Shown here piece by piece: positions 2,031 through 64,000 of a DNA stretch of 64,000 nt. A program made the translations under genes and the position numbers. Every line of letters starts with the position of its first letter. Within the stretch, counting starts at the first letter, position 1. Source of the stretch: Candidatus Uhrbacteria bacterium (lineage in GTDB: Bacteria > Patescibacteriota > Patescibacteriia > UBA9934). The notes beneath the pieces were generated by a model, which worked only from the letters and a program-made list of their open reading frames with translations, was not told where the DNA came from and did not search any database. Location of the stretch: assembly GCA_963822405.1 (NCBI GenBank), contig CAWGHH010000001.1:227717-291716 (forward strand). The letters run 5' to 3'.

Positions 2031-2576
2031 ATGGGTGGAAGCGCTTTTCTTAATCCAGAACAATTGATGGATGCCGGTGGCGTCCGTTTTGGGCACCACG
2101 TGGCTGATATTGGTACAGGTAGAACTGGCCATCTTGTTTTTCCGCTTTCTGGTCGAGTTGGTGAGGAGGGGAAGGTGTACGCAATTGATATTGATCCTGA
2201 AGCAGTTGCGATGGTTGAAGGTCTTCGCCGAACTCGTGGAACGCAGAATTTGCATGCTCTTTGGGCTGATGTCGAATCGCCCGGAACCGTACAAGTCCCT
2301 GAAGCGTCACTTGATGTTGCCTTCCTTGTGAATACATTGTGGACAATGAAGAAGCAGGAAGAAATGGCTGATGAGGTTAGCCGGTTAATGAAGGATGATG
2401 GTCGAATTTTTGTGATGGATTGGCGACAGAATGCCTTGCATCCACTTGCGCCAGCTCTAGAATATCGCCAGCAACCAGAGTTAGTAGACATCTATTTTGC
2501 TCAGGCCGATTGGTATCCGGCTTACGAAGTTCGGATCACGCCTCATCATTGGGCTCGGGCCTACGAGAGACTTTGA
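2031..2576 (+). CDS. class I SAM-dependent methyltransferase
   Basis: Motif I-like VADIGTGRTGH followed by an acidic motif (YAIDID); ATG at 2031 chosen inside the longer ORF-track frame. Confidence 0.55.
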   Translation: MGGSAFLNPEQLMDAGGVRFGHHVADIGTGRTGHLVFPLSGRVGEEGKVYAIDIDPEAVAMVEGLRRTRGTQNLHALWADVESPGTVQVPEASLDVAFLVNTLWTMKKQEEMADEVSRLMKDDGRIFVMDWRQNALHPLAPALEYRQQPELVDIYFAQADWYPAYEVRITPHHWARAYERL

Positions 2577-2616
2577 GTTGACTAGGGTTCGCTCTCGGTT
2601 TACCATCTTGCACAAT

Positions 2617-3021
2617 ATGTCCCAACTTTTGACCCTGCATTTCTGGTTCAATTCAGCTCCGGTAGCCATGAGTAATGAATTTTCTTACGGTTTCTTCATC
2701 TTCTTTGCTCTTCTAGCTATTGGCGCAGCGTTGTTGAGAATAGTTGCTAAGCGCACGGTGCGTGACGTTTATGATAAACAAGCCATTAGAATGGCTGGCA
2801 ACTTAATTGCTTGGCTTTCGTTCTTTGGTTTTGTCTGGCTCTTCTGTACTTACGAAGAAGTCCAAATCTTTGGTGTTCGAGGCTGGTTCATTCTCTGGGT
2901 TCTTGCTTTCATAGTTGGCGCTGTCAGGATTGCTCTCTTTGTTAAAAATGCCCCAGAACTTCGTGTAAAGAACGCTTCTCGTTCATCTGTTAACCAGTAC
3001 TTGCCTCGCCGTTCACGCTAG
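2617..3021 (+). CDS. hypothetical polytopic membrane protein
   Basis: 3-4 predicted TM helices (FFIFFALLAIGAALL, LIAWLSFFGFVWLF, WFILWVLAFIVGAV); start at the first internal ATG. Confidence 0.4.
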   Translation: MSQLLTLHFWFNSAPVAMSNEFSYGFFIFFALLAIGAALLRIVAKRTVRDVYDKQAIRMAGNLIAWLSFFGFVWLFCTYEEVQIFGVRGWFILWVLAFIVGAVRIALFVKNAPELRVKNASRSSVNQYLPRRSR

Positions 3022-3022
3022 T

Positions 3023-3379
3023 GTGGTGGAAATTCGTCGCAAGAAAGGGAATGATGGTGAAGACTTGGCGGCGGAATATTTGGTTAAGAAGGGATTTGAA
3101 ATTCTGGATAGACAATATCTAACTAGGCTTGGTGAAATCGATCTTGTGACCCGAGAGGGTAGCGAGATCGTTTTTGTTGAGGTGAAGGCACGTTTTGGGT
3201 TAGAATTTGGTCACCCAGAAGAATCGGTTACGCCGAGCAAACTCCGCAAGATCGCGAACACCGCTGAGCTGTATATTCGACAAAAGGGGATGATCGACGC
3301 GCCTTTCAGAATTGATGTCATCGCAATTAGGCTCGACCTTATTCCGCCAGAAATCGTGCATTTGGAAAATGTGTACTAG
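3023..3379 (+). CDS. yraN: YraN family (UPF0102) endonuclease
   Basis: GEDLAAEYLVKKGFEILDRQY...GEIDLV...EIVFVEVKAR is the typical YraN/UPF0102 core; GTG start. Confidence 0.7.
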   Translation: MVEIRRKKGNDGEDLAAEYLVKKGFEILDRQYLTRLGEIDLVTREGSEIVFVEVKARFGLEFGHPEESVTPSKLRKIANTAELYIRQKGMIDAPFRIDVIAIRLDLIPPEIVHLENVY

Positions 3380-3381
3380 CT

Positions 3382-3714
3382 ATGAATGACTTTTCTTCTT
3401 CTTGGGAGCTTGAGCGCCTTGATAACCCCGATGCGCGGTTTGCAGAGATCGCTCGGGAACTACAGCCCGGTGGAAAGTTTTCGTTTATCACGCTGAATAA
3501 AAATAGTGTTCAAGTCTTTTTGCAACGATATAAAACACCCATGCCGTGCAAGGCCAATGACCTCAAAACCCTTCGTCGTCTCGCCCAAAAATACGGCCTC
3601 ATCCCGGTTGTGCTCCGTCTGAAGGAAGACCCATCAAGCGCCTCACTTTTTTCAAAGATTCCCTGGTCCCTCAGCAAACCGCATATTGTGGGAGTGTTTC
3701 AGAAGGTATCATGA
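3382..3714 (+). CDS. hypothetical protein (weak methyltransferase-fragment resemblance)
   Basis: 110-aa ORF; the LQPGGKFSFITL segment resembles the post-motif-II region of class I MTases, but no N-terminal SAM-binding motif is present. Confidence 0.3.
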   Translation: MNDFSSSWELERLDNPDARFAEIARELQPGGKFSFITLNKNSVQVFLQRYKTPMPCKANDLKTLRRLAQKYGLIPVVLRLKEDPSSASLFSKIPWSLSKPHIVGVFQKVS

Positions 3715-3716
3715 AC

Positions 3717-3744
3717 TTGCACGTTTTCATTCTTGTGTTATCAT
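3717..3744 (+). promoter_or_regulatory. candidate sigma70-type promoter for nusA (TTGCAC-N16-TATCAT)
   Basis: TTGCAC at 3717-3722 and TATCAT at 3739-3744, about 50 nt upstream of the nusA ATG. Confidence 0.25.
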
Positions 3745-3793
3745 CTCTGCATAAGAACTCGGCTGATGGCCGGGTTCGTTGCTTAAATAGACT

Positions 3794-5041
3794 ATGTCAT
3801 CCCCAATAGAACAAGCCATTAGACAGATTTGTGAGGAAAAGGGACTTTCTTATGAGTCAGTACTTGAAACGATCGAGTCGGCACTGGCGGCTGCGTACCG
3901 TAAGGATTTTGGTGACAAATATCATAACCTTGAAGCCGAGTTTAACCCGGAGGATGCTTCTATTCGCGTTTTTGACGTGAAGACAGTGGTTGAGGACATC
4001 TCGGAGGAAGAGCTCGAAGAAGTTAGAAAGAAAGAAGCTGAAGAGTCAGCTGCTCGTGAAGCTCGTCGCGCTTTGGGTGAATACACTCCGGCCATTGAGG
4101 AAGTTTCAACCGAAGAAAAGCCAAAGTACAATCCAAAGACTGATGTCATGCTTTCTGAGGCAAAGATTTTACGTGGTGGCTCGAAGGTTGGGGACGTTTT
4201 GCGAACTGAGTTGCCAATCCCTGGTGAATTCGGTCGTATGGCTGCCATGACTGCTAAGCAGGTTATTACCCAGAAGCTCCGTGAAGCAGAGCGTGAAATT
4301 ATTTTCAATGAATTTAAGGGTGTTGAGAATACGGTTATCACTGGCACTGTCCAGCGCCGTGAAGGTCGTATTATTTTGGTAGACATTGGCCGAACTGCTG
4401 GCATCTTGAAGCCGGAAGATCAGATGATGACGGATCGTTATCGTTCTGGAGATCACATCAAGGTATTTGTTCGCGAAGTTTCTCTTGACGATGGCGGCGC
4501 ACAGATTTTACTTTCTCGTACGCACGAGTCGCTCGTTAAATATCTATTCGAAACGGAAATTCCAGAAATTGGTGAAGGCTCGGTTATCATTAAGGCTATT
4601 GCTCGTGAAGCTGGCGCCAGAACAAAGATTGCCGTGACTTCAAGCGACGCCCAGATTGATCCTATTGGTGCATGTATCGGTCAGCGTGGAACTCGTATTC
4701 AGACGATCATTGCCGAACTTGCCGGAGAGAAGATCGACATTATTGAATGGAGTGAAAATATCGCGAAGTTCATTGAGCAATCACTTGCTCCAGCTAAGAT
4801 TCAAGGTGTGCAGGTAGATGAAGATGAAAAGTTGGCCACGGTCATGGTTGTTCCGGAACAACTTTCTTTGGCTATTGGTCGCGGTGGACAGAACGTTCGC
4901 CTAGCGGCTCGTTTGACTGGTTGGAAGGTGAACATTCAGGAAGTAACTCCTGAAGGAACGCCAGTTCCGCTTGATGTTTCTGACTACGAAATCCCTGTTG
5001 AAGGAGAGCCTGTTGGCGTTGAAACCCCAAACGTTGAATAA
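3794..5041 (+). CDS. nusA: transcription termination/antitermination factor NusA
   Basis: N-terminal domain, S1 domain (TGTVQRREGRIILVDIG), two KH domains (IDPIGACIGQRGTRIQ; LAIGRGGQNVRLAARLTGW). An acidic insertion lies in the N-terminal domain. Confidence 0.9.
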   Translation: MSSPIEQAIRQICEEKGLSYESVLETIESALAAAYRKDFGDKYHNLEAEFNPEDASIRVFDVKTVVEDISEEELEEVRKKEAEESAAREARRALGEYTPAIEEVSTEEKPKYNPKTDVMLSEAKILRGGSKVGDVLRTELPIPGEFGRMAAMTAKQVITQKLREAEREIIFNEFKGVENTVITGTVQRREGRIILVDIGRTAGILKPEDQMMTDRYRSGDHIKVFVREVSLDDGGAQILLSRTHESLVKYLFETEIPEIGEGSVIIKAIAREAGARTKIAVTSSDAQIDPIGACIGQRGTRIQTIIAELAGEKIDIIEWSENIAKFIEQSLAPAKIQGVQVDEDEKLATVMVVPEQLSLAIGRGGQNVRLAARLTGWKVNIQEVTPEGTPVPLDVSDYEIPVEGEPVGVETPNVE

Positions 5042-13200: not shown

Positions 13201-13208
13201 TGTCTGTC

Positions 13209-13296
13209 ATTGCGAGGGGCCCGTCCGCGGGAGCCCGAAGCAACCTTGTGAGATTGCTTCGACCCAGACGATTACGTCTGGTCTCGCAAAGACTGA
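13209..13296 (+). repeat. ~88-bp structured repeat element, copy 1 (intact; TTGCGAG...CTCGCAAAGACTGA with nested hairpins)
   Basis: Matches the sequence that flanks the GIY-YIG gene at 61739-62132 almost identically, except that the central loop here is only 8 nt (ttgtgaga). Confidence 0.5.
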
Positions 13297-13317: not shown

Positions 13318-14235
13318 ATGAAAACACTAGTCACAGGTGGTTCTGGATTCATTGGCTCTCATCTTGTTGATCGCTTGATCGCGGACGGCCACGAGGTGAC
13401 GGTGATCGACAAAGTTGCGCCGAGCGACCTGAACAAGAATGACAAGGCGAAATATGTCATCATGAATATACTCGACAAAAAAGTTGAGGATATTTTTGCA
13501 GAGGCTAAACCGGAGCTACTTTTTCACTTAGCTGCCTACATTAACGATCGAGGCAGTATTAGGGAGCCATCCGTATGTACGGACACAAATGTCTTGGGAA
13601 CACTAAATGTACTCGAGTCCGCTAGGAAGTCTGGCGTGAAGCGAATAGTTTTTACTTCAACTGGTGTTTACTACGGCGAGCAGGACAAGATGCCAATTTC
13701 TGAAACTGCAGTTCCTAAGCCTATTACCCCGTACGGCATTTCAAAACTTATTGGTGAACAGTATCTTCGCTATTACCGCGAACACTTTGGTCTTTCTTCA
13801 ATGGCTCTTCGCTTGGGTAATGTTTATGGTCCACGGCAAGATGGCAGTCAAGAATGCGGAGGTATAGCTATTTTTACTGATCGACTGCTGAATGGTGAGG
13901 ACGCGTTCATGAATAATGACGGGCTGACCACGCGTGACTATATTTTTGTTGGCGACATTGTAAACGGCCTTATGAAGGCGGGGGAGAGCAAATACGTAGG
14001 TGTAGTTAACTGCTCAACTGGAGTCGGGACAACAACCAAACAACTTTACGATTTAGTTGCTGATGCCGTTGGTTCAGGTAAGCGACCCGTCGAACGCCCG
14101 GAAGTTCTCGACCATCCCAAGCATGTGGTGCTTGATCCTGGGCTCGCGAAAAGAGAACTGGATTGGGAAGCAAAAATGACCTTAAAAGAGGGAATTGCAG
14201 AAACTGTAAAGTGGTATAAGATGCATCGAGATTGA
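13318..14235 (+). CDS. NAD-dependent epimerase/dehydratase (UDP-sugar 4-epimerase family)
   Basis: MKTLVTGGSGFIGSHLVDRL Rossmann motif and a YxxxK-type catalytic region (the YGISKLIGEQY segment contains YGISK). Confidence 0.8.
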   Translation: MKTLVTGGSGFIGSHLVDRLIADGHEVTVIDKVAPSDLNKNDKAKYVIMNILDKKVEDIFAEAKPELLFHLAAYINDRGSIREPSVCTDTNVLGTLNVLESARKSGVKRIVFTSTGVYYGEQDKMPISETAVPKPITPYGISKLIGEQYLRYYREHFGLSSMALRLGNVYGPRQDGSQECGGIAIFTDRLLNGEDAFMNNDGLTTRDYIFVGDIVNGLMKAGESKYVGVVNCSTGVGTTTKQLYDLVADAVGSGKRPVERPEVLDHPKHVVLDPGLAKRELDWEAKMTLKEGIAETVKWYKMHRD

Positions 14236-14348
14236 TGCTATCTTGTGTCGTCCCTCCCATCCTGAGCGAGAGCGAAGGATCCGACTCTCAGGCCTGAGGG
14301 TCGGACTCTTCGCATGGCTCAGAGTGGGGACACATGGATAGACCTTTT

Positions 14349-15287
14349 ATGAAAATACTAGTCACTGGTGGCGAGGGATTTCTAGGTTCCCATATAGTCG
14401 ACGCGCTCGTAGCCCGAGGTGACGATGTTATTGCGGTTGACCACCATGCGCGGGAAAAAGTGCGCTACCCAAACCTTGGCGCGCGGATGATTTACGCGCG
14501 GTTTGGCGATCCGGTTGTTCGCGATGTGCTCATAAACGAACGGCCAGACGCCATTGTTCACGTAGCTGCGCAGATTAGTGTGACTAAATCTATCCGAGAT
14601 CCGCTTTATGATGCCCAGACCAACGTCATTGATGCGGTAAATTTATTGTCATGGGCTAAAGAAGCGGGTGTGCCTAGGATTGTTTTTGCTTCTTCGGGCG
14701 GGGCTATTTACGGTGATCATCCAGTCAGGCCAACGCCGATTATTCATAACCCTTCGCCTCTTTCTCCGTACGGAATAAACAAGTTCGGGTTTGAAAAATA
14801 TCTGGAGGGTTCCCGTGTGCTTGGTGGCCCGTCTGCTATTAGTTTACGTTTTTCAAATTTCTACGGTCCACGTCAACAGATTTCTAAAGAGTCCGGCGAG
14901 GGGAACGTGGTGACGCTATTTTTGAACCGGATTCTGGTTACTGGCCAGCCAATTACTATTTTTGGTGCAGGTGACGCTAGCAGAGATTATCTTTATGTTG
15001 ATGACGCGGTTAGCGTAATTCTTAAGGGTCTGGCTAGCGAGGTTGAAGGTCCTGTGAACATCAGCACCGGTCAGGCGGCGAGCATTCATGAGCTAGTAGA
15101 TCTTCTGATGGAGATCCATGGCCAGCCTCACGTTTTGAACTACGAACCATACCGTTCCGGAGAGGTTTACCACAGTGTTCTTGACCCCGAGTCGGCTGAG
15201 AGACTTCTTGGCTGGAAAGCGAAAATAGATTTGCGAGAAGGATTACGAAGAACCTATAATTGGTACAAAGAGACGTTCGGAGTTTAG
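14349..15287 (+). CDS. NAD-dependent epimerase/dehydratase, paralog
   Basis: MKILVTGGEGFLGSHIVDAL and YGINKFGFEKY; second SDR-extended family member in tandem. Confidence 0.8.
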   Translation: MKILVTGGEGFLGSHIVDALVARGDDVIAVDHHAREKVRYPNLGARMIYARFGDPVVRDVLINERPDAIVHVAAQISVTKSIRDPLYDAQTNVIDAVNLLSWAKEAGVPRIVFASSGGAIYGDHPVRPTPIIHNPSPLSPYGINKFGFEKYLEGSRVLGGPSAISLRFSNFYGPRQQISKESGEGNVVTLFLNRILVTGQPITIFGAGDASRDYLYVDDAVSVILKGLASEVEGPVNISTGQAASIHELVDLLMEIHGQPHVLNYEPYRSGEVYHSVLDPESAERLLGWKAKIDLREGLRRTYNWYKETFGV

Positions 15288-25713: not shown

Positions 25714-25770
25714 GAGCCCCGTGGTGATGGGTTTGGCACCGCCAAACCCTTACGTCACGGGGCTTTTGCG
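25714..25770 (+). terminator. nested hairpin/terminator after the giant gene
   Basis: GAGCCCCGTG ... CACGGGGCT followed by TTTTG; the inner palindrome GGGTTTGGCaccGCCAAACCC occupies 25729-25749. Confidence 0.45.
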
Positions 25771-39212: not shown

Positions 39213-40859
39213 ATGGCTATTGCTGACCTGCTCAAAATTCCACCGGTCCGTTCCTTTCTGTTGGGAGGCAAGAGCCTTGCTGAATTTAGGGTTGTCGCTA
39301 AAAACAATGATTTACCAGTTGAGCGCGCAGTTGAATTCCTTGATTTGTGTAATGCAGTAATTGATGGGGCGTTGCCAATGGCGGAGGTGCCGGGGATTAT
39401 TGCGCAGGCGTTTGGGAAGGATGAGGAGACGGCTAAAAAGATTTCGGCGGATATTTTTGGGTATCGAATTTTGCCACTTGAACCGTTTATTCCTGGGATT
39501 GGTGCGCAGATCACGGCTTGGGGCGGAAAATTGGAAGACTATCCAGCTAGACCGATTAGCAAAGAGCAAATTACCGCCTTTTCATGGGCGCAGAGGATGA
39601 ATGAGCTTGCTAATCTTGGATTTTCAGATGTGCTTGTGAAGCGTTTAGCCTTACTTCTTGATGGTCGAATTAGAGGCGAGAAAAATGCTGAAGCACTAAG
39701 AACATTTTTCGGTAGGCCGTTGACTATTGGTGGTTTAGCTTTATTGAAGGAAAAAGTTGAAGCTTTGTTGGCAGAAGTAGAGCGTGAGGCACCGTATATT
39801 GAAACAGTATCTGAAGAAGAATGGCAGAAGATAGAAATTGCAAAGGCTGAGGCGGAGGCTGCGGAAGAGGTGGAGGAATCGGCGGAGGGGTTTGGCGACG
39901 CCAAACCCGTACAACAGGAGGTGGCATTGTCGCAGGCTATAGAAATCGCCCCGCCAAAAGAATTAGCAGCAGAGGTGCCGTCAACGGTTGGTTTTGTGCC
40001 GGATAATTTAAAAGAAGTTGTTGATGAAGCTATAGATGCAGTAAAAGAAATACTTTTAGCAGAGAATATTTCTTTGGATAAATTCCGGTCACTAGCTCAG
40101 ATGAATATTAGAGGTGTTCGCGAACCAGGCCAGACGCGGGATATTCTTGAGAAAGAATACAAGTTAGCTGGCGCTGATTTGCGTGTAGTGTTGGATGCGC
40201 TAGCCGCCGGCAAGAAGAGATTTGATTTGGCGAAGGGGTTTGGCGGCGCCAAACCCGTACATAGCGAGGTGCCCGAAGGGCATAATCAGAATGAGTCCAA
40301 GGAATCGAGTGCCCTCGACCAAAAATTTGCGCAACTCACTAAGACCTTGCCGGAAGAATCCATTGAACCAATCATGCCGGGGTCAAGAGTATCGGCGGCG
40401 CGGGACACTCAATCACCCTCGACCAAGAAAATCATTCCTCTTAAGCCTAGGCCAGCCAAGGCTGAGTTAACTGTTGGTAGCGTTGCTCCAGGGGCTGTTG
40501 ATCGAAAGATGACTGACATAGTTCAGGCCTCGCGTTTAATGGGGCCAGTTGATCAGATTCAGAGCTTGTCGACAACTGAGTTTAGGCGCATGTCCAGTGA
40601 TCCCGCTGAGGCTGCGCGGAAAGTGGAAGATTTAATTATTGCGCTGTTAGCTACTGGCTATGAAGAGCGAGTGAGCGGTATTAATGCTTGGCGTAAGAGT
40701 CCTTTGAACCAGATGTATCTAGAGATTTCTGAAGAAGCACTAGGTGCCGGCATGACCATTCCGGATATTTGCAGCAAGCGCCGTAAAGAAAAAAGAGACT
40801 GTTTGAGCCCGGCGGAAATTAAAGCGATTATTGGACTTAATGCCAAGCTGAGATTTTAA
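39213..40859 (+). CDS. hypothetical acidic soluble protein (T4SS-cluster associated)
   Basis: 548 aa, no TM helices. Contains an internal ~44-bp direct repeat, each copy holding the GGGTTTGGCGnCGCCAAACCC palindrome (encoding GFGDAKPV and GFGGAKPV). Confidence 0.4.
   Translation: MAIADLLKIPPVRSFLLGGKSLAEFRVVAKNNDLPVERAVEFLDLCNAVIDGALPMAEVPGIIAQAFGKDEETAKKISADIFGYRILPLEPFIPGIGAQITAWGGKLEDYPARPISKEQITAFSWAQRMNELANLGFSDVLVKRLALLLDGRIRGEKNAEALRTFFGRPLTIGGLALLKEKVEALLAEVEREAPYIETVSEEEWQKIEIAKAEAEAAEEVEESAEGFGDAKPVQQEVALSQAIEIAPPKELAAEVPSTVGFVPDNLKEVVDEAIDAVKEILLAENISLDKFRSLAQMNIRGVREPGQTRDILEKEYKLAGADLRVVLDALAAGKKRFDLAKGFGGAKPVHSEVPEGHNQNESKESSALDQKFAQLTKTLPEESIEPIMPGSRVSAARDTQSPSTKKIIPLKPRPAKAELTVGSVAPGAVDRKMTDIVQASRLMGPVDQIQSLSTTEFRRMSSDPAEAARKVEDLIIALLATGYEERVSGINAWRKSPLNQMYLEISEEALGAGMTIPDICSKRRKEKRDCLSPAEIKAIIGLNAKLRF
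39888..39908 (+). repeat. palindrome GGGTTTGGCGaCGCCAAACCC (in frame inside CDS)
   Basis: Perfect 10-bp arms; the same core is found at 25729-25749 and 40236-40256. Confidence 0.5.
40236..40256 (+). repeat. palindrome GGGTTTGGCGgCGCCAAACCC (in frame inside CDS)
   Basis: Second intragenic copy, 348 bp downstream of the first. Confidence 0.5.
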
Positions 40860-57229: not shown

Positions 57230-58922
57230 CTAGAACGCGAGCGTACCACCGTTGGCGGTAAGATGCTTTACATACATTCCGTCAATGTTGACACCCGTGT
57301 TCGTTGAATCAGACCAGTTCATGCCCTTGAGGAGGGGTTTGGATGGGACAAGTGGTTCGGCTGGGAGGTCGAAGCGAATGACGTCGTCATCAGCTGAGCT
57401 GGCACCCGTTGCGTCGAAGTAAAGGGCAAACGTGTGGCTAGTGCCCTTTGTAATTACTGATGCAGTTGGGAGATTGATCCTTATGAAAGTTACGTTACCA
57501 GACGAAACGCAGGCTACTCCATTGCTATCCATGAGCGTCCAGTTGGTGTCTGCAGTATCAAGTGAGGTGCTTGAGTCCTGGTATAGGTCATAGATGTCGA
57601 AGTCTGCAGCCACAGTGTTGCCGCAGAGGTTCCAGCCAGTATTTGCGTTATCATTTGAGCTCATCTTAAAAGTGAGTGCATTAAGAACTACATCATCGCC
57701 TGCACTGGCTGCTACGTTAAAGCGAATCACTTCATTTCGACCGACAACTGCAGAACCCGATGGGCTGGAAGATGCGATGGAAATTGTGGGGCGAGTTTCG
57801 CGGAGAGTGAACGTTCCTCCCTGATAACCAACCCCCATTTCAACTTCTGTGATTACATTTCCTGAGGTCATGCCAATAGCTTTGAAGACACCGCCAGGTA
57901 AGAAGCCGAATGCTTCGCTGAAGGTCATGCCTGAGGCTCCGTTTCCTGTATTGCTGATATCGGCAGTATCTACGAACACTTCAATCACGGCTGCATTTGA
58001 AGCGCCGGTAGGAACGAAAAGGGTCAGGCCAGTGAATTTGACGAGATGATTTGAGACCGCTCCGATGCTGGTAACGGTCGCTCCGGTTGCATCTTTGTAG
58101 GAGATCTTCACGGTTTTAACAGCTGCATCATCGCCAACATTTTTAATGGTCAACGTTTGAACTGTATACGGCTCGTTAGTAGCGGTGAGTTTGAATACGC
58201 CGGCTTTGACAGTGCTATTCGCAAGAGCGATGTTGTTCGGGGTATTTGGATCAACGGAAAGACTGAGATTGCCGTGATCTTTAACTGTTATAGCAACTGA
58301 TTGTGAGGCGTTAACTCCTGGATCTTTTGGTCTCGCCAATATAGATACGGGCACCGGGTAGTGCACTCCCTTGGCCGTTTTCTGCGGATACATCAGTGTC
58401 GCTGTTAACAGAAAAGGCATAAATATCTGGGCTTGATCCATCTGGAGGAACGTTCGCAAAAGTACAATGAAGTGAATAGCCTCTTCCGGCATTAGCAGGA
58501 ATGGTAAGGTCTAGGTTTTCAAAAATTGCCCGTCCCAAATTATCAACTAGCACTGGAGCGGTAAGCGAATGACCTTGAAGATCCCAAAGCTGACAATTCG
58601 AGATGTGATCAGCTGGAGTTACGTTATTTTCTACACTCGCAAAGGTTCCGTCAGAATCGCCGATGACGTTAAATATAAGGCGCTTAACTCTGACGGGTTT
58701 GTTTTGTGCTTGAAGACTTATCGCTAGAACAGGATCAAGTCCAGTGCCAACAACTACTGCATGAGAAATAGTTTGAGGAACAGTTTTAACAACTAGAATT
58801 GGCAAAGCATTATTCGCCGCAATCACAAACCCCGCCGCTGCGGCGAGTAAGCCGGTGCCCATGATGGCAATGCCGACTAGGGCACTGGTTGTTGTTTGAA
58901 CTGCTGTTGATGTTTGTTGCAT
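57230..58922 (-). pseudogene. surface-protein paralog B, frameshifted near 58340-58390
   Basis: The ORF 58311-58949 (N-terminal part, frame 2) and the ORF 57230-58492 (C-terminal part, frame 1) together give 573 codons, against 572 for intact paralog A. They are collinear with A on both sides of the overlap. Confidence 0.5.
58830..58922 (-). repeat. 93-bp exact repeat (5' end of paralog B coding region), identical to 60556-60648
   Basis: Encodes the shared MQQTSTAVQTTTSALVGIAIMGTGLLAAAAGFVIAA signal anchor. Confidence 0.7.
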
Positions 58923-58929
58923 ATTGTAT

Positions 58930-60648
58930 TTAGAAGACGAGCGTGCCACCGGTTATTGGCAGATTTTTGATGAAATTACCGTTTATGAGGTCTAGTCCAT
59001 TCACACCTTCGCGCCATTGGATAGTGTGTAGCAATGGGGAAAATTGGTGAGCTGGCTCGGAAACAATTTCAACTTTGATGGCGTCGTCCTGCGCTGAATC
59101 AGCGCCAGTTGAATCTACGATGAGTGAAAATGTATGAGAAGTTCCTGCTGAGATATTGCCATGAACAAGATTTACTAACGCATATCCCACAACTGCCTGT
59201 TCACGATCAGCCGGACCGCACTGATTACCATCAGCATTCATGATTATCCATGACGAATTGTTATTGCTAAGAACCTCTCCTGTTGTGAGGTCCTTAAGTT
59301 CCCACTTCGATGTGTCCCCGAGTCCGCTAACCGTGGAGGATCCGCACGACGCCCATGGGTGTTCAATGTGAGAGAAAGTATCGATCTTGAAAGTCATTTG
59401 TGACATGCTTAGATCACCAGCTGGATCTGCCGCTACATTGAACCGTAGGACTTCTGAACGGCCAGGAATTGCGGCTCCTGAAGGGGTTGAAGAGGATAGA
59501 GTGATGGTCGGGCGAGTCTTGCGGATTTCTAATCCGGCAGGGCTAGGAATATCACCGTTCATGTTCGCTTCGGTGATAACTTTGCCGGAAGTGTTGCCAC
59601 GCGCCATGAAGCTGCCTGGAGTTGTGAGATCAAGTGTCGCGCTCATGCCCCAGCCTGAACGAACAGGGCTGGTGGAGTTGATTGGTGCAGCTTCAAATGT
59701 TACATCGATCGGTAGGGCATTAGTCGCACCTGCTGGAACGTTAATAGCTAGTCCGGTGAAGTCGGCTACGCCGTTTACAAAAGCTACACCATTAGTCATG
59801 AGTCGGCCATCTGGAAGTTTGTAACCAAGGAAGGCGAAGTTTGCACCTCCAAGTTCACCGTATTGCTTGATGCGAAGTTTTTGGATGGTGAACGCTTCGT
59901 TAGTGCTTGAGAATTTGTATGTAGCAATCTTTGCTTGAGTACCAGCGATGATAATGTCGTCCTTCGGAGAGGTTGGGTCGATGCTGGCGGAAAGTTTTCC
60001 GCTACTTCTAACTGTCACGGTTACCGGTCCACCCATGTTTACACCGACATCCGCTGGACTTCCTACGTTGATTCGATCGGCGCCTAGGATATTGTTCGCG
60101 ATAGTCGCTCTGGCTACGACGTTGGCAGGATTGCCTCCAAGCTCGAACGCCATGATGTACTTATCGTTCGCAGAACTGCCTGCGAGGTCGCAGTTAATAG
60201 TGAACTGGGTAACCGTGTTAGCCGGCAATGTGAATGTGTCAGCAAAGGTTATTATGTTTCCGTTTTCAATGTATGACGGCCCGGCAAAGACAGAGCCGGT
60301 TTGCTTATTTTTGATTACGCACGAGGTTACTAAATCAGCGCCCGAAAGATCGTTTTCAATTGTATTAAAGTTGCCGTCGCTATCTGCCAGCACATCAAAA
60401 ACAAGTTTATTTATAGTTATGCCTTTATTTTTAGCTTCTAAGCTAAAGCCGAGCATTTGTTCATCTCGTGCACCTTGCACAGCACTATGTGCGGTTGGCT
60501 TTGGGGTTGCTCTGATATTCAGAATAGGACCAGTGTTACTAGCCGCGATTACGAATCCCGCCGCTGCGGCGAGTAAGCCGGTGCCCATGATGGCAATGCC
60601 GACTAGGGCACTGGTTGTTGTTTGAACTGCTGTTGATGTTTGTTGCAT
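58930..60648 (-). CDS. surface/cell-envelope protein paralog A (signal-anchored, beta-rich, 572 aa)
   Basis: N-terminal hydrophobic anchor, Thr/Ser/Asn/Gly-rich beta-type domains, conserved C-terminal ...TGGTLVF. A TATAAT sits 7 nt upstream of the ATG, with a G9 tract in the -35/spacer region. Confidence 0.55.
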   Translation of the reverse strand: MQQTSTAVQTTTSALVGIAIMGTGLLAAAAGFVIAASNTGPILNIRATPKPTAHSAVQGARDEQMLGFSLEAKNKGITINKLVFDVLADSDGNFNTIENDLSGADLVTSCVIKNKQTGSVFAGPSYIENGNIITFADTFTLPANTVTQFTINCDLAGSSANDKYIMAFELGGNPANVVARATIANNILGADRINVGSPADVGVNMGGPVTVTVRSSGKLSASIDPTSPKDDIIIAGTQAKIATYKFSSTNEAFTIQKLRIKQYGELGGANFAFLGYKLPDGRLMTNGVAFVNGVADFTGLAINVPAGATNALPIDVTFEAAPINSTSPVRSGWGMSATLDLTTPGSFMARGNTSGKVITEANMNGDIPSPAGLEIRKTRPTITLSSSTPSGAAIPGRSEVLRFNVAADPAGDLSMSQMTFKIDTFSHIEHPWASCGSSTVSGLGDTSKWELKDLTTGEVLSNNNSSWIIMNADGNQCGPADREQAVVGYALVNLVHGNISAGTSHTFSLIVDSTGADSAQDDAIKVEIVSEPAHQFSPLLHTIQWREGVNGLDLINGNFIKNLPITGGTLVF

Positions 60649-60655
60649 ATGGGTA

Positions 60656-61702: not shown

Positions 61703-61738
61703 AAGTTTGCCTAAGTATACATCGATTTTTTCCCGTCT

Positions 61739-62132
61739 TTGCGAGAGTCCCGTCCGCGGGAGCTCGAAGCAACCTCAAAAGAGCTCACTCGAAATATCAC
61801 GCCAAGTCGGATTTTCAGTCGCAATTAACAGCATTTTCTTGTTTCTCGACCCAGCCTTAATCTGCTTCTCTCTAGAAATCGCATCGTATGCTGTTGAAAA
61901 TACTTCAACATATACGAGTTTTATGCAGTTGTATTCCTTCGTAAATCCTTCGACGAGTTTATCTTTGTGTTCTTGGACTCTTCGAGAGATGTCGTTCGTG
62001 ACGCCTGTGTATAGGACAGAATTATGGGGATTTGTCATGATGTACACGTAGTAACTCCGCTCTTCCATATAAGAAATATCATTGGGGTTGCTTCGACCCA
62101 ACGGATTACCGTTGGTCTCGCAAAGACTGATA
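61739..62132 (+). repeat. structured repeat element, copy 2, with GIY-YIG ORF occupying its central loop
   Basis: Left arm 61739-61774 and right arm 62087-62132 match 13209-13296 (TTGCGAGRG.CCCGTCCGCGGGAGCYCGAAGCAACC ... TTGCTTCGACCCARACGRATTAC...GGTCTCGCAAAGACTGA). Confidence 0.45.
61775..62068 (-). CDS. GIY-YIG nuclease family protein (UPF0213-like)
   Basis: YYVYIMTNPHNSVLYTGVTNDISRRVQEH contains the GIY-YIG motif pair plus the conserved Arg and Glu. Confidence 0.7.
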   Translation of the reverse strand: MEERSYYVYIMTNPHNSVLYTGVTNDISRRVQEHKDKLVEGFTKEYNCIKLVYVEVFSTAYDAISREKQIKAGSRNKKMLLIATENPTWRDISSELF

Positions 62133-62136
62133 GGGG

Positions 62137-63414
62137 CTACTTCGCCAACTCTCTCACATGCTTAACATTCTTCGGTGTAAGCGAAGTTGCCATACCTAGC
62201 CTTTCGGCTTCTTTCAGTCGGCGTTCAAGGAAGGGGACGGAGCGGACTTCGCCGCCCAGGCCAAGTTCGCCGACGATGATTGTATCGGCGGGGAAGGTTT
62301 TGTCGTTGATCGCTGAAATAATTGCGGCAGCGACTGCGAGATCGGCGGCGTGTTCGTCGATTTTGATTCCGCCGACTACGTTTACGAAGACGTCCTGGTC
62401 GTAGACCTTGAGGCCGGCGCGTTTGGACACGATCGCGAGCACCATTTGTAACCTCGACGCGTCATAACCGGATGTGCGACGAACTGGATTTGGGAAGAAT
62501 GACTTGTCGACGAGTGCTTGAATTTCGACGAGGAACGGTCGCGATCCTTCCATGATGCAGGTGACGACAGAGCCAGGACCTGGCACGCGCTCTTTTAAGA
62601 ATCGAGCCGACGGGTTCTCGACCGCAATTAATCCCTTCTCTGTCATCTCGAAAACGCCGATTTCTTCGGTGCTACCAAAACGGTGCTTGTTCGCACGAAG
62701 AATTCTGTACGTCGAGTCTGGGTCGCCTTCAAGGGTAAGAAGGGTGTCGACCAGGTGCTCGAGCGTCTTTGGCCCCGCAATAGTTCCTTCTTTAGTCACT
62801 TGGCCAATAATTAAAACCGGCGTGTTTGTAGATTTTGCGAAGCTGATCAGCTCGGTTGTCGCCGCTCGCACCGCAGTTGGCGTTCCTGGAAATGCGTCAG
62901 CTTCTGCCACCATCATGGTCTGAATAGAATCGACGATTACGATGCTCGGTTTTGCTTCTCTCGCGGCCGCAATAATTGCGCCAACATCGACTGCATTCGA
63001 AAACAGGATCGTGCCCGGGTTAATTCCGAGGCGTTCAAAGCGTAGGCGAACCTGGCCTTCGGATTCTTCGCCAGATGCGTAATAGGCCGTTTGAAAACCC
63101 GCAATCTGGGCCACGATGGTCGACTTGCCGATTCCCGGTTCACCAGCGAGGAGCGTTACAGATCCTGGCACGATTCCTCCGCCAAGGACTCGATCGAGCT
63201 CGGAAAGCCCAGTTGGGATGGGGGAGGTGACGGTGGCGGTGGCTTCGCCTAATTTCAAAACAGGCGCAGGTTTTGCGTGGCTGGTGCCTTTTGACCCCCC
63301 TAGCCCCCCCGGGAGGGGGGAACCATCCTCGGCTAATGTTCCCCATTTTCCACACTCCGTGCATCGCCCAGACCATTTTAGAACCTGGGTATCGCAGTGA
63401 GAACAGCTGTACAT
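62137..63414 (-). CDS. radA: DNA repair protein RadA/Sms
   Basis: N-terminal C4 zinc finger (CSHCDTQ...CTECGKW), Walker A GEPGIGKST, KNRFG motif (RANKHRFG), and a Lon-protease-like C-domain. Carries a GC-rich palindromic insert after the zinc finger. Confidence 0.9.
   Translation of the reverse strand: MYSCSHCDTQVLKWSGRCTECGKWGTLAEDGSPLPGGLGGSKGTSHAKPAPVLKLGEATATVTSPIPTGLSELDRVLGGGIVPGSVTLLAGEPGIGKSTIVAQIAGFQTAYYASGEESEGQVRLRFERLGINPGTILFSNAVDVGAIIAAAREAKPSIVIVDSIQTMMVAEADAFPGTPTAVRAATTELISFAKSTNTPVLIIGQVTKEGTIAGPKTLEHLVDTLLTLEGDPDSTYRILRANKHRFGSTEEIGVFEMTEKGLIAVENPSARFLKERVPGPGSVVTCIMEGSRPFLVEIQALVDKSFFPNPVRRTSGYDASRLQMVLAIVSKRAGLKVYDQDVFVNVVGGIKIDEHAADLAVAAAIISAINDKTFPADTIIVGELGLGGEVRSVPFLERRLKEAERLGMATSLTPKNVKHVRELAK
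63293..63322 (-). repeat. GC-rich palindromic element in radA (reverse complement TTCCCCCCTCCCGGGGGGGCTAGGGGGGTC)
   Basis: Same family as 44107-44135, in gene-sense orientation; encodes the Pro/Gly-rich loop GSPLPGGLGGSKG. Confidence 0.5.
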
Positions 63415-63415
63415 A

Positions 63416-64000
63416 TTAGTTGCACATTGGAGAGTACTCCTTACTGTCAGCTGAGTCATCCTTCATGCAACAGTAGTCTTTGAAGTCGTATTCAAAGCAG
63501 CCGGCGGGATTATGACCAGAAACAATTGGTGTGCTGTTGGCTGTTGTACATGACCGTTTGCTAAGCTGTTTGCCATCAAGCTCGTAATGCCATGCTTCGC
63601 TGGTCAATCTGCAAAAACCATTGGCTGTCATGATTTGATTCATTGTGGTCATGTCTTTCACGTTGGCAATGAAATCACCCGGGCTACCTTCGGGGAAAAT
63701 ATCAACGGCTACATTTGAGGTATGAGGACAGTTTCTAGCTTGTCCGTTGGAAGTTAGAATGTTCGTTCCTGTGGCCGGATCAGTTACTCCGAGTAGCATT
63801 CCAGTTGCGGTAAAAGTTCTATTGGCATACGAAACTACGGTTGATCTGCCGTATGTACTTCCTGTTGGATCGCAGGTAGACGGTTTATGCGGTGAGCCAG
63901 GTGCCATGAAGCGCTCAAAGAATAATCTAGCTTGAACGCTAACGTCTCTGCTGGCGGAAGTAACTTGAATATTTTTTCCTGTTTGGGCGAAATATATACC
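63416..64000 (-). CDS. peptidase M15 (VanY/D-Ala-D-Ala carboxypeptidase-like) family protein, partial (N-terminus beyond window end)
   Basis: CPHTSNVAVDIF (HxxxxxxD) and LTSEAWHYEL (ExxH) zinc-binding motifs; the frame stays open to position 64000. Confidence 0.5.
   Translation of the reverse strand, partial: GIYFAQTGKNIQVTSASRDVSVQARLFFERFMAPGSPHKPSTCDPTGSTYGRSTVVSYANRTFTATGMLLGVTDPATGTNILTSNGQARNCPHTSNVAVDIFPEGSPGDFIANVKDMTTMNQIMTANGFCRLTSEAWHYELDGKQLSKRSCTTANSTPIVSGHNPAGCFEYDFKDYCCMKDDSADSKEYSPMCN

Follow-up and report, generated by a model that had tools for sequence, protein, structure and literature searches.

Single-domain GIY-YIG nucleases acting on single-stranded DNA (ssDNA), called Ssn, whose genes are flanked by hairpins called Ssn-related motifs (SRM), have recently been described (Chenal et al., Nat Commun 2025; PMC11893778). 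Here we analyze a 64-kb stretch of DNA from a Candidatus Uhrbacteria bacterium (hereafter the window, to whose positions coordinates refer unless another locus is named), which holds two related units: one of ~88 bp without an open reading frame (ORF) at 13206-13296, and one at 61735-62130 that carries a small GIY-YIG gene. The window case is a further example of the system published in 2025; both loci are very probably instances of it, the 97-aa protein being a likely member of the Ssn family and the hairpin arms its putative cognate SRMs.

In Neisseria meningitidis, SsnA is a 94-aa single-domain GIY-YIG protein belonging to CDD cd10448, the family that delimits Ssn; it binds the hairpin repeat NTS (CGTCATTCCCGCGMAVGCGGGAATCYRG) solely as ssDNA and cuts a few nucleotides upstream of the hairpin, with no action on double-stranded DNA (dsDNA) and no binding of RNA (PMC11893778). 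The GTC preceding the palindrome weighs most for cleavage, and the C following it most for binding (PMC11893778). Homologues across bacteria are flanked by related SRM hairpins, and the sole function shown experimentally for the family is an NTS-dependent reduction, in N. meningitidis, of transformation by NTS-flanked DNA (PMC11893778). The NTS-ssnA-NTS layout has been likened to an insertion sequence (IS), and a parallel has been drawn with repetitive extragenic palindromic (REP) sequences and their REP-associated tyrosine transposases (RAYT), the IS analogy being raised with no evidence of movement given (PMC11893778). A search of a literature library for a follow-up publication on Ssn mobility found none, and text searches with the repeat sequences retrieved nothing but primers.

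Two related units, with and without a nuclease gene

The preliminary description of this DNA had pointed to a repeat at 13209-13296 that recurs, split in two, around a GIY-YIG ORF at 61775-62068. This recurrence is genuine and not due to chance: the left arms (13210-13245 and 61739-61774) differ at 3 of 36 nt, with 0 matches expected from 100 shuffles, and the right arms (13254-13296 and 62088-62130) are identical at 37 of 43 positions, the other 6 being substitutions. The likeness of the left arms reaches 4 nt further outward, with GTCA at 13206 and GTCT at 61735. The whole ORF-less doublet at 13206-13296 reads GTCATTGCGAG GGGCCCGTCCGCGGGAGCC CGAAGCAACC ttgtga GATTGCTTCG ACCCAGACGATTACGTCTGGT CTCGCAAAGAC tga. 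Both units are intergenic, the ORF-less one lying 5 nt past the prfB stop codon and preceding an epimerase gene, and the neighbouring genes of the two sites are unrelated to each other. The features are as follows.

13206..13245, plus strand: SRM-like hairpin, left arm of the ORF-less doublet, GTCATTGCGAG-GGGCCCGTCCGCGGGAGCC-CGAAGCAACC, 90% identical to 61735-61775
13246..13251: spacer TTGTGA (6 nt) between the convergent hairpins of the empty doublet
13252..13293, minus strand: SRM-like hairpin, right arm of the ORF-less doublet, GTCTTTGCGAG-ACCAGACGTAATCGTCTGGGT-CGAAGCAATC in the minus-strand reading, with a conserved 5' flank TCA that extends to 13296
61735..61774, plus strand: SRM-like hairpin directly 3' of the ssn stop codon and convergent with the gene, GTCTTTGCGAG-AGTCCCGTCCGCGGGAGCT-CGAAGCAACC
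61775..62068, minus strand: ssn gene, encoding a 97-aa single-domain GIY-YIG nuclease (by homology)
62069..62085, minus strand: leader of 17 nt between the upstream hairpin and the ssn ATG
62086..62127, minus strand: SRM-like hairpin upstream of ssn, in the orientation of the gene, GTCTTTGCGAG-ACCAACGGTAATCCGTTGGGT-CGAAGCAACC, with a conserved 5' flank TCA that extends to 62130

The arms share the consensus GTC(A/T)TTGCGAG, a variable stem-loop, and CGAAGCAA(C/T)C. Four arms of this flavour are present in the window, none beyond the two units. As previously noted, the ssn stop codon directly adjoins the left arm (...GAAGCAACC). In the spacer of the empty copy we found nothing convincing, within the window, that could represent a remnant of the ssn leader or of its 3' end. 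A candidate third copy at 16-63 (65% identity) was judged a chance resemblance.

Eight of the nine substitutions between the two copies amount to four compensatory base-pair changes, all within the two inner hairpins. Three of these pair changes separate the arms at 62086-62127 and 13252-13293 (CCAGACG/CGTCTGG versus CCAACGG/CCGTTGG), and in the left hairpin GGG/CCC stands against GAG/CTC.

The nuclease gene and its product

The 294-bp ORF at 61775-62068 (minus strand, 97 aa) has PF01541 as its sole Pfam match (E 8e-18, residues 6-77), in agreement with the GIY-YIG identity first proposed for it, and an NCBIfam search of the protein gave no further domain and no family assignment. It is the only ORF inside the unit, and Pfam detected no transposase domain in it. 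The group-I-intron endonuclease model TIGR01453 reaches 17.7 bits on the protein, for a cut-off of 56.

In BLASTP, the window protein and the 94-aa SsnA orthologue of Neisseria gonorrhoeae share 44% identity across 85 aa (E 9e-27), and a tblastn search of a 7.3 Gb plasmid collection hit the single ssnA locus of N. gonorrhoeae (43.5% identity, E 5e-17); these values lie below the E < 1e-10 that the original paper uses as its homology criterion for the Ssn family. The gonococcal ORF was taken as the SsnA orthologue from its length of 94 aa and its NTS context (GTCATTCCCGCGCAGGCGGGAATC repeats around it). Its locus stems from NZ_CP119140.1 and NZ_CP119142.1 (L165; 2.17 Mb each), which are N. gonorrhoeae chromosomes filed as plasmids in PLSDB. 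The nearest solved structures belong to UPF0213 proteins (PDB 1ZG2, B. halodurans BH0048, E 2e-6), and B. subtilis yazA is 35% identical. The locus displays these features of the published system: a small single-domain GIY-YIG protein without an extra DNA-binding domain, and a gene flanked on its 5' and 3' sides by oriented hairpins in which a GTC at the 5' end and a C behind the palindrome are conserved.

Homologues at 55-69% identity exist in many phyla. The GC content of ssn is 41%, that of the window 48.5% and that of the neighbouring gene for RadA 54%; the low GC of ssn and the position of its closest homologues in other phyla count in favour of a foreign origin of the gene, as far as composition and similarity can suggest it.

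The start of the gene is annotated differently by different sources, the product being 90 aa in NCBI/ENA and 97 aa in Logan (from the ATG at 62068), and the longest form of the ORF begins at a TTG at 62101, inside the upstream hairpin. An identical protein is encoded on a second assembly of the same genome (L081, a Logan ERR12037365 contig that is 100% identical to 61743-64000). This contig stops within the left arm, 32 nt past ssn. SRM sites coincide with assembly trouble in a second case as well, the NCBI scaffold L163 of a relative, which has a run of Ns at ~1097-1190 at the prfB-epimerase junction; such SRM-linked breaks bear on metagenome binning and annotation.

Folding of the units

Folding had been suggested as a check at the outset, and the empty copy folds far better than its shuffles (z about -6). 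It forms a cloverleaf on either strand, as RNA (-45 and -50 kcal/mol for the two strands, z = -5.7 and -5.9) or as DNA (-29 and -30 kcal/mol, z = -6.0 and -6.2). Taken singly as ssDNA, each arm forms a TTGC/GCAA closing stem, a purine-rich internal loop and an inner stem-loop, at -9 to -10 kcal/mol: the closing stem and inner hairpin of 13206-13245 reach -9.2 kcal/mol, 13252-13293 folds at -10.0 kcal/mol (z = -3.1), and 62086-62127 at -10.1 kcal/mol (z = -3.5). Across homologous loci, inner SRM segments differ in sequence, yet their folding beats that of shuffles. Together with the compensatory changes between the window copies, this conservation of the fold shows that the inner hairpins are under selection.

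The basic unit is better read as one oriented hairpin of ~40 nt than as one 88-bp element with an ORF in its loop. The 11-bp outer inverted repeat, GTC(A/T)TTGCGAG / CTCGCAAAGAC, pairs throughout in the filled copy, whereas a single A-A mismatch interrupts it in the empty copy; it contains and extends the terminal inverted repeats TTGCGAG/CTCGCAA of the preliminary description, but it is a byproduct of two inverted hairpins. Terminal inverted repeats and central stem of the 88-bp cloverleaf arise because two such hairpins sit tail to tail in inverted orientation, and they are not independent evidence for one larger structure. The association of repeat and gene that had been described is likewise genuine, but the hairpins also occur in tandem and divergent pairs (43 and 79, respectively, in the survey reported below), which does not fit a single element with an ORF in its central loop.

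The strong RNA fold of the empty copy (z = -5.7) and the compensatory changes between copies might also be expected of a structured RNA, be it a cis-regulatory element, a small RNA or a ribozyme, that tolerates an ORF in its central loop as intron-like RNAs do. We consider this very improbable. Both strands fold equally well, as inverted DNA repeats should and an oriented RNA should not; the units lie in either orientation to neighbouring genes, and tandem hairpins exist too. No Rfam family was found at gathering thresholds (tRNAs only, over the whole window), and at E <= 10 the locus gave only a chance microRNA match. Moreover, neither intron-like features nor an interrupted host gene are present, and SsnA does not bind RNA (PMC11893778).

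It had also been considered whether the shared flanks could be ordinary terminator or promoter sequences conserved beside neighbouring genes. The intergenic position of both units, one of them so close to the end of prfB, would suit such a role, but scans of the two sites revealed no terminator-like T-tract and no sigma-70-like promoter, the neighbouring genes are not shared, and orthologous junctions in relatives either lack the sequence or carry a repeat of another flavour. An explanation by transcription signals is therefore scarcely conceivable.

Homologous loci in other phyla

We surveyed 80 loci encoding the closest homologues (55-69% identity) of the 97-aa protein, which come from Cyanobacteria, Chloroflexi, Patescibacteria, Planctomycetota, Bacteroidota, Desulfobacterota and others. 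The same architecture, with and without the ORF, is present in dozens of genomes of many phyla and is not confined to the two window loci. The recurring layout consists of GTCATTGCGAG, a variable hairpin and CGAAGCAATCT upstream of the gene, and of the reverse complement of the same kind of motif downstream; further gene-less copies of the hairpin lie nearby. A forward SRM upstream and a reverse SRM downstream, both at most 200 nt from ssn, are present in 58 of the 80 loci. Of the 70 flanking pairs scored, 51 are convergent and enclose ssn. Between the end of the upstream hairpin and the start codon there are usually 2-60 nt. When the repeats were anchored solely on TTGCGA...GCAA, the flanks proved conserved as tGTCA on the 5' side (64/92/91/90/85%) and as TC on the 3' side (88/89%); these conserved ends correspond to the positions that are critical in the Neisseria NTS.

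The hairpins are strongly enriched around ssn. With the flavour-restricted motif, ssn loci contain 406 hairpins in 520 kb (7.8 per 10 kb) and 80 control loci selected by RadA contain 5 in 381 kb (0.13 per 10 kb), a difference of ~60x, and a looser definition of the motif yields 475 hairpins in ssn loci versus ~58 in shuffles.

ORF-less convergent doublets, with spacers of 5-40 nt, 5-35 nt being typical, number 63 in the 80 loci and greatly outnumber the filled ones; further arrangements are the 43 adjacent tandem pairs and 79 divergent pairs already mentioned. Single genomes can hold several near-identical doublets (six in L010, for example), and the flanks differ among the doublet copies of one genome. 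A test for shared arms could be applied to 19 loci: in 5 of them, the two arms of an ORF-less doublet match those that bracket the local ssn at 85% identity or more, with the arrangement unchanged. The empty/filled pair of the window is thus common to the family at large. An ORF-less doublet of L033 still has the first 6 nt of the ssn leader in its spacer, a hint of deletion.

Orthologous sites in related genomes

Orthologous RadA junctions were taken from metagenome relatives. In L083 (a 194-kb contig, 81% RadA identity) and L082 (80%), the synteny from RadA to an AAA-ATPase gene is kept, and neither the arms nor ssn are present; the RadA-ATPase intergenic region of L083 is 50 nt long and can be aligned, in its promoter-proximal part, with the DNA that flanks the window unit on the right. 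The ~393-bp unit, arms included, was therefore either inserted in the lineage of the window or precisely lost in these relatives, as the comparison of junctions suggests. Gene-less doublets stand right after RadA in more distant relatives, of the same flavour in L090 and of the flavour GTCATCC(C/T)GA in L084 and L087.

This insertion polymorphism bears on two ideas of the preliminary description. One was that the empty copy is a deletion derivative of a mobile unit. The unit does behave like inserted DNA, and an ORF-less derivative is a plausible reading of the empty copy; no target-site duplication was found. The other was homing into the central loop. In a homing model, the ORF-less doublet would be the target of the GIY-YIG enzyme and the break would be repaired from the filled copy, with the ~40-bp arms as homology. 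Homing endonucleases are numerous among GIY-YIG enzymes, the gene slots exactly between the two arms, its stop codon adjoining one of them, and both arms, identically arranged, are common to empty and filled copies in the window as in the five surveyed loci. However, the characterized Ssn cut ssDNA 5' of the GTC, outside the doublet, and do not cut dsDNA (PMC11893778), and the one-domain window protein has no DNA-binding extension similar to that of I-TevI. Moreover, neither arms nor gene are present in L082 and L083; the arms therefore arrived together with the gene or earlier, within the insertion, and empty doublets are far commoner than filled ones. Homing is improbable on these grounds.

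A second hairpin family is also present. Its one copy in the window lies at 14250-14330, between the epimerase genes 13318-14235 and 14334-15287, and reads GTCCCTCCCATCCTGAGCGAGAGCGAAGGATCC-GACTCTCAGGCCTGAGGGTC-GGACTCTTCGCATGGCTCAGAGTGGGGAC; in appearance it is a doublet of a further SRM-like flavour (CCATCCTGAG...GAAGGATCC) in which (C/A)CC replaces GTC. In L162 (~455-560) this family sits at the prfB-epimerase junction, where the window has the doublet of TTGCGAG flavour. In L083, a copy at 2809-2908 lies in frame inside the RadA ORF (2501-3862), to which it adds ~29 residues (…VAQIA[TSFTSIPSRPEVATEGSDPHKRKSDPSLSLRMV]TSYYASGEE…) just past the Walker A motif; the ORF remains open (453 aa), and the arrangement is reminiscent of the in-frame Rickettsia palindromic elements. 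In L082, the RadA-ATPase intergenic region holds, past the RadA stop codon (~1985-2095), a long palindromic repeat of a different kind, made of CAGGT(G/A)TCAGG units (…CAGGTTTCAGGTGTCAGGTATCAGG…CCTGATACCTGACACCTGACACCTG…).

A possible class of mobile elements

A mechanism can be sketched from the behaviour of the Neisseria and Wolbachia enzymes. The SRM would fold when the DNA becomes single-stranded, during replication, transformation, conjugation or extrusion; Ssn would bind the semi-palindrome and the 3' C of the folded arm and cut a few nucleotides 5' of the GTC. In a convergent pair each strand would be cut once, so that the cuts fall on the unit's two outer borders. The filled copy would represent the autonomous, IS-like form, and the empty copy a gene-less derivative comparable to a miniature inverted-repeat transposable element (MITE) or a REPIN. 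This assignment is favoured because close relatives lack arms and gene alike, doublets without the gene are more numerous than those with it, and L033 retains part of the leader.

It is possible, and we propose it tentatively, that a new class of bacterial transposable elements exists, with SRM-ssn-SRM units as its autonomous and SRM doublets as its non-autonomous mobile members. The sole function encoded by such an element would be a 97-aa GIY-YIG ssDNA hairpin nuclease, which would cut at the outer GTCs, leaving host replication or repair to complete the movement. In favour of mobility speak the presence or absence of the unit at an orthologous site, the identical doublets in unrelated flanks and the gene-less copies that share both arms; the replacement of flavours at one intergenic site, and the occurrence of a related hairpin family in frame in RadA, point in the same direction.

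Several points weigh against these readings. Concerning the identification with the published system, the degenerate SRM string HGTCWYN(0-2)YYVSBRHN(0-5)WNVSBRGN(0-2)RNCYNB has 0 matches in the window on either strand, because the arms measure 40-42 nt and carry TTGCGAG after GTCW, which the string disallows; the string is a search heuristic derived from 29 genomes, not a definition of the family. The arms are also longer and more composite than the Neisseria NTS, and membership of the Ssn family is suggested by homology to SsnA and by the repeat context rather than by placement in cd10448. Cleavage by the window protein, and its use of this SRM flavour, are predicted from homologues, and the chemistry and position of the cuts, like any mobilization by Ssn, are what we infer.

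Concerning movement, the window has just two units in its 64 kb, a count that does not by itself point to a high copy number in the genome. The prfB-epimerase junction of L162 and L164, whose epimerases are 79-80% identical to that of the window, is not an empty site but holds doublets of another flavour, and there is therefore no proof of recent insertion there; the site appears to have been occupied for longer, with repeat flavours replaced. The preliminary description had proposed to look for target-site duplications at the copy boundaries, and none was found at the two window sites, at the empty site of L083, or at doublets in L010, L032, L033, L043, L048, L061 and others; nor did either window site reveal another signature of transposition. 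GIY-YIG nucleases hydrolyse DNA without a covalent intermediate, and cut-and-paste would therefore need host functions. Finally, the direction from filled to empty copy, that is gene loss versus gene gain, is one that we infer.

Alternatively, the system may be a domesticated host function with no current mobility, in which SRMs, as has been suggested for Neisseria, would be chromosomal marks for cutting of incoming or exposed ssDNA by the resident Ssn, modulating transformation or recombination around the genes they flank, and an empty doublet would be one more mark. This would agree with the NTS-dependent reduction of transformation in N. meningitidis, the one function demonstrated in the family (PMC11893778), with the failure to find target-site duplications, and with the purifying or compensatory selection on the hairpins. 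However, it leaves unexplained the identical doublets in unrelated flanks of one genome, the absence of the unit at the orthologous site of relatives, and the low GC of ssn with its closest homologues in other phyla. Somewhat unlikely as a full account, it is nonetheless compatible with an origin from a mobile element rather than exclusive of one.

To our knowledge, no site-specific nuclease confined to ssDNA was known before the Ssn enzymes, whose development into tools is under way; every additional pair of enzyme and hairpin is a further candidate specificity for such use. The long composite hairpin escapes the published search string, and the diversity of the repeats and their occurrence in Patescibacteria-like lineages may be under-counted. 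The new points are modest: a composite flavour, a Patescibacteria-like host, the relationship between empty and filled doublets, and a truly empty orthologous site. The empty/filled pair and the empty orthologous site provide concrete substrates and junctions that make the mobility of Ssn/SRM testable, a question left open by the original paper.

Other repeats in the window

Two further repeats were noted. A direct repeat of 130 nt (91% identity) occurs at 58795-58924 and 60521-60650, 1726 nt apart; the second copy lies over the 5' end of a 572-aa ORF (58930-60648, minus strand) and the first just downstream of the stop codon of this ORF. A short palindromic repeat, GGGGTTTGGCG(A/G)CGCCAAACCC, has two or three copies, at 39876-39923, at 40224-40271 and, weakly, at 25717-25764.

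Comparison with known systems

With IS elements and MITEs, the units share an 11-bp terminal inverted repeat, gene-bearing and short gene-less forms with the same ends, and unrelated flanks. They differ in that no target-site duplication was found and that the unit encodes no DDE, serine or tyrosine transposase; moreover, what looks like terminal repeats are here autonomous hairpin motifs, which are also found singly.

GIY-YIG homing endonucleases such as I-TevI and the Seg enzymes have the same catalytic fold, and the gene behaves, as theirs do, as an insertion absent from related genomes. In contrast to them, the window protein has no C-terminal DNA-binding domain and its gene lies outside an intron or phage, Rfam detecting no intron RNA in the window; the Ssn class acts on ssDNA hairpins and makes no double-strand break in an intron-less allele. 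The UPF0213 proteins (BH0048, YazA) are small single-domain GIY-YIG relatives as well, but are far more distant from the window protein than SsnA.

The resemblance to REP/REPIN-RAYT systems (TnpA_REP, IS200/IS605-like Y1) is architectural only. In both cases short extragenic hairpins, often in inverted doublets, are dispersed intergenically in genome-specific flavours and flank the single-copy gene of an enzyme that is specific for ssDNA hairpins. The enzyme here is, by homology, a hydrolytic GIY-YIG nuclease and not an HUH/Y1 transposase with a covalent 5'-phosphotyrosine intermediate.

The closest counterpart is Ssn/SRM itself, from which the window case departs in several respects. Its hairpin of 40-42 nt is composite (TTGC/GCAA closing stem, purine-rich internal loop, variable inner stem-loop), and its downstream hairpin is convergent with the gene, in this as in the related loci, whereas at gonococcal ssnA the NTS just past the stop codon lies in the orientation of the gene. 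Its host appears, from the names of the nearest epimerase homologues, to belong to a Patescibacteria-like lineage not mentioned in the main text of the paper, where gene-less convergent doublets sharing arms with an ssn unit, and insertion polymorphism at orthologous sites, also appear undescribed (PMC11893778). The two agree in the following: a single-domain GIY-YIG protein of ~95 aa, a gene flanked on both sides, repeats with a 5' GTCA, a semi-palindrome and a 3' TC, more copies of the repeat elsewhere in the genome, and a spread over many phyla.

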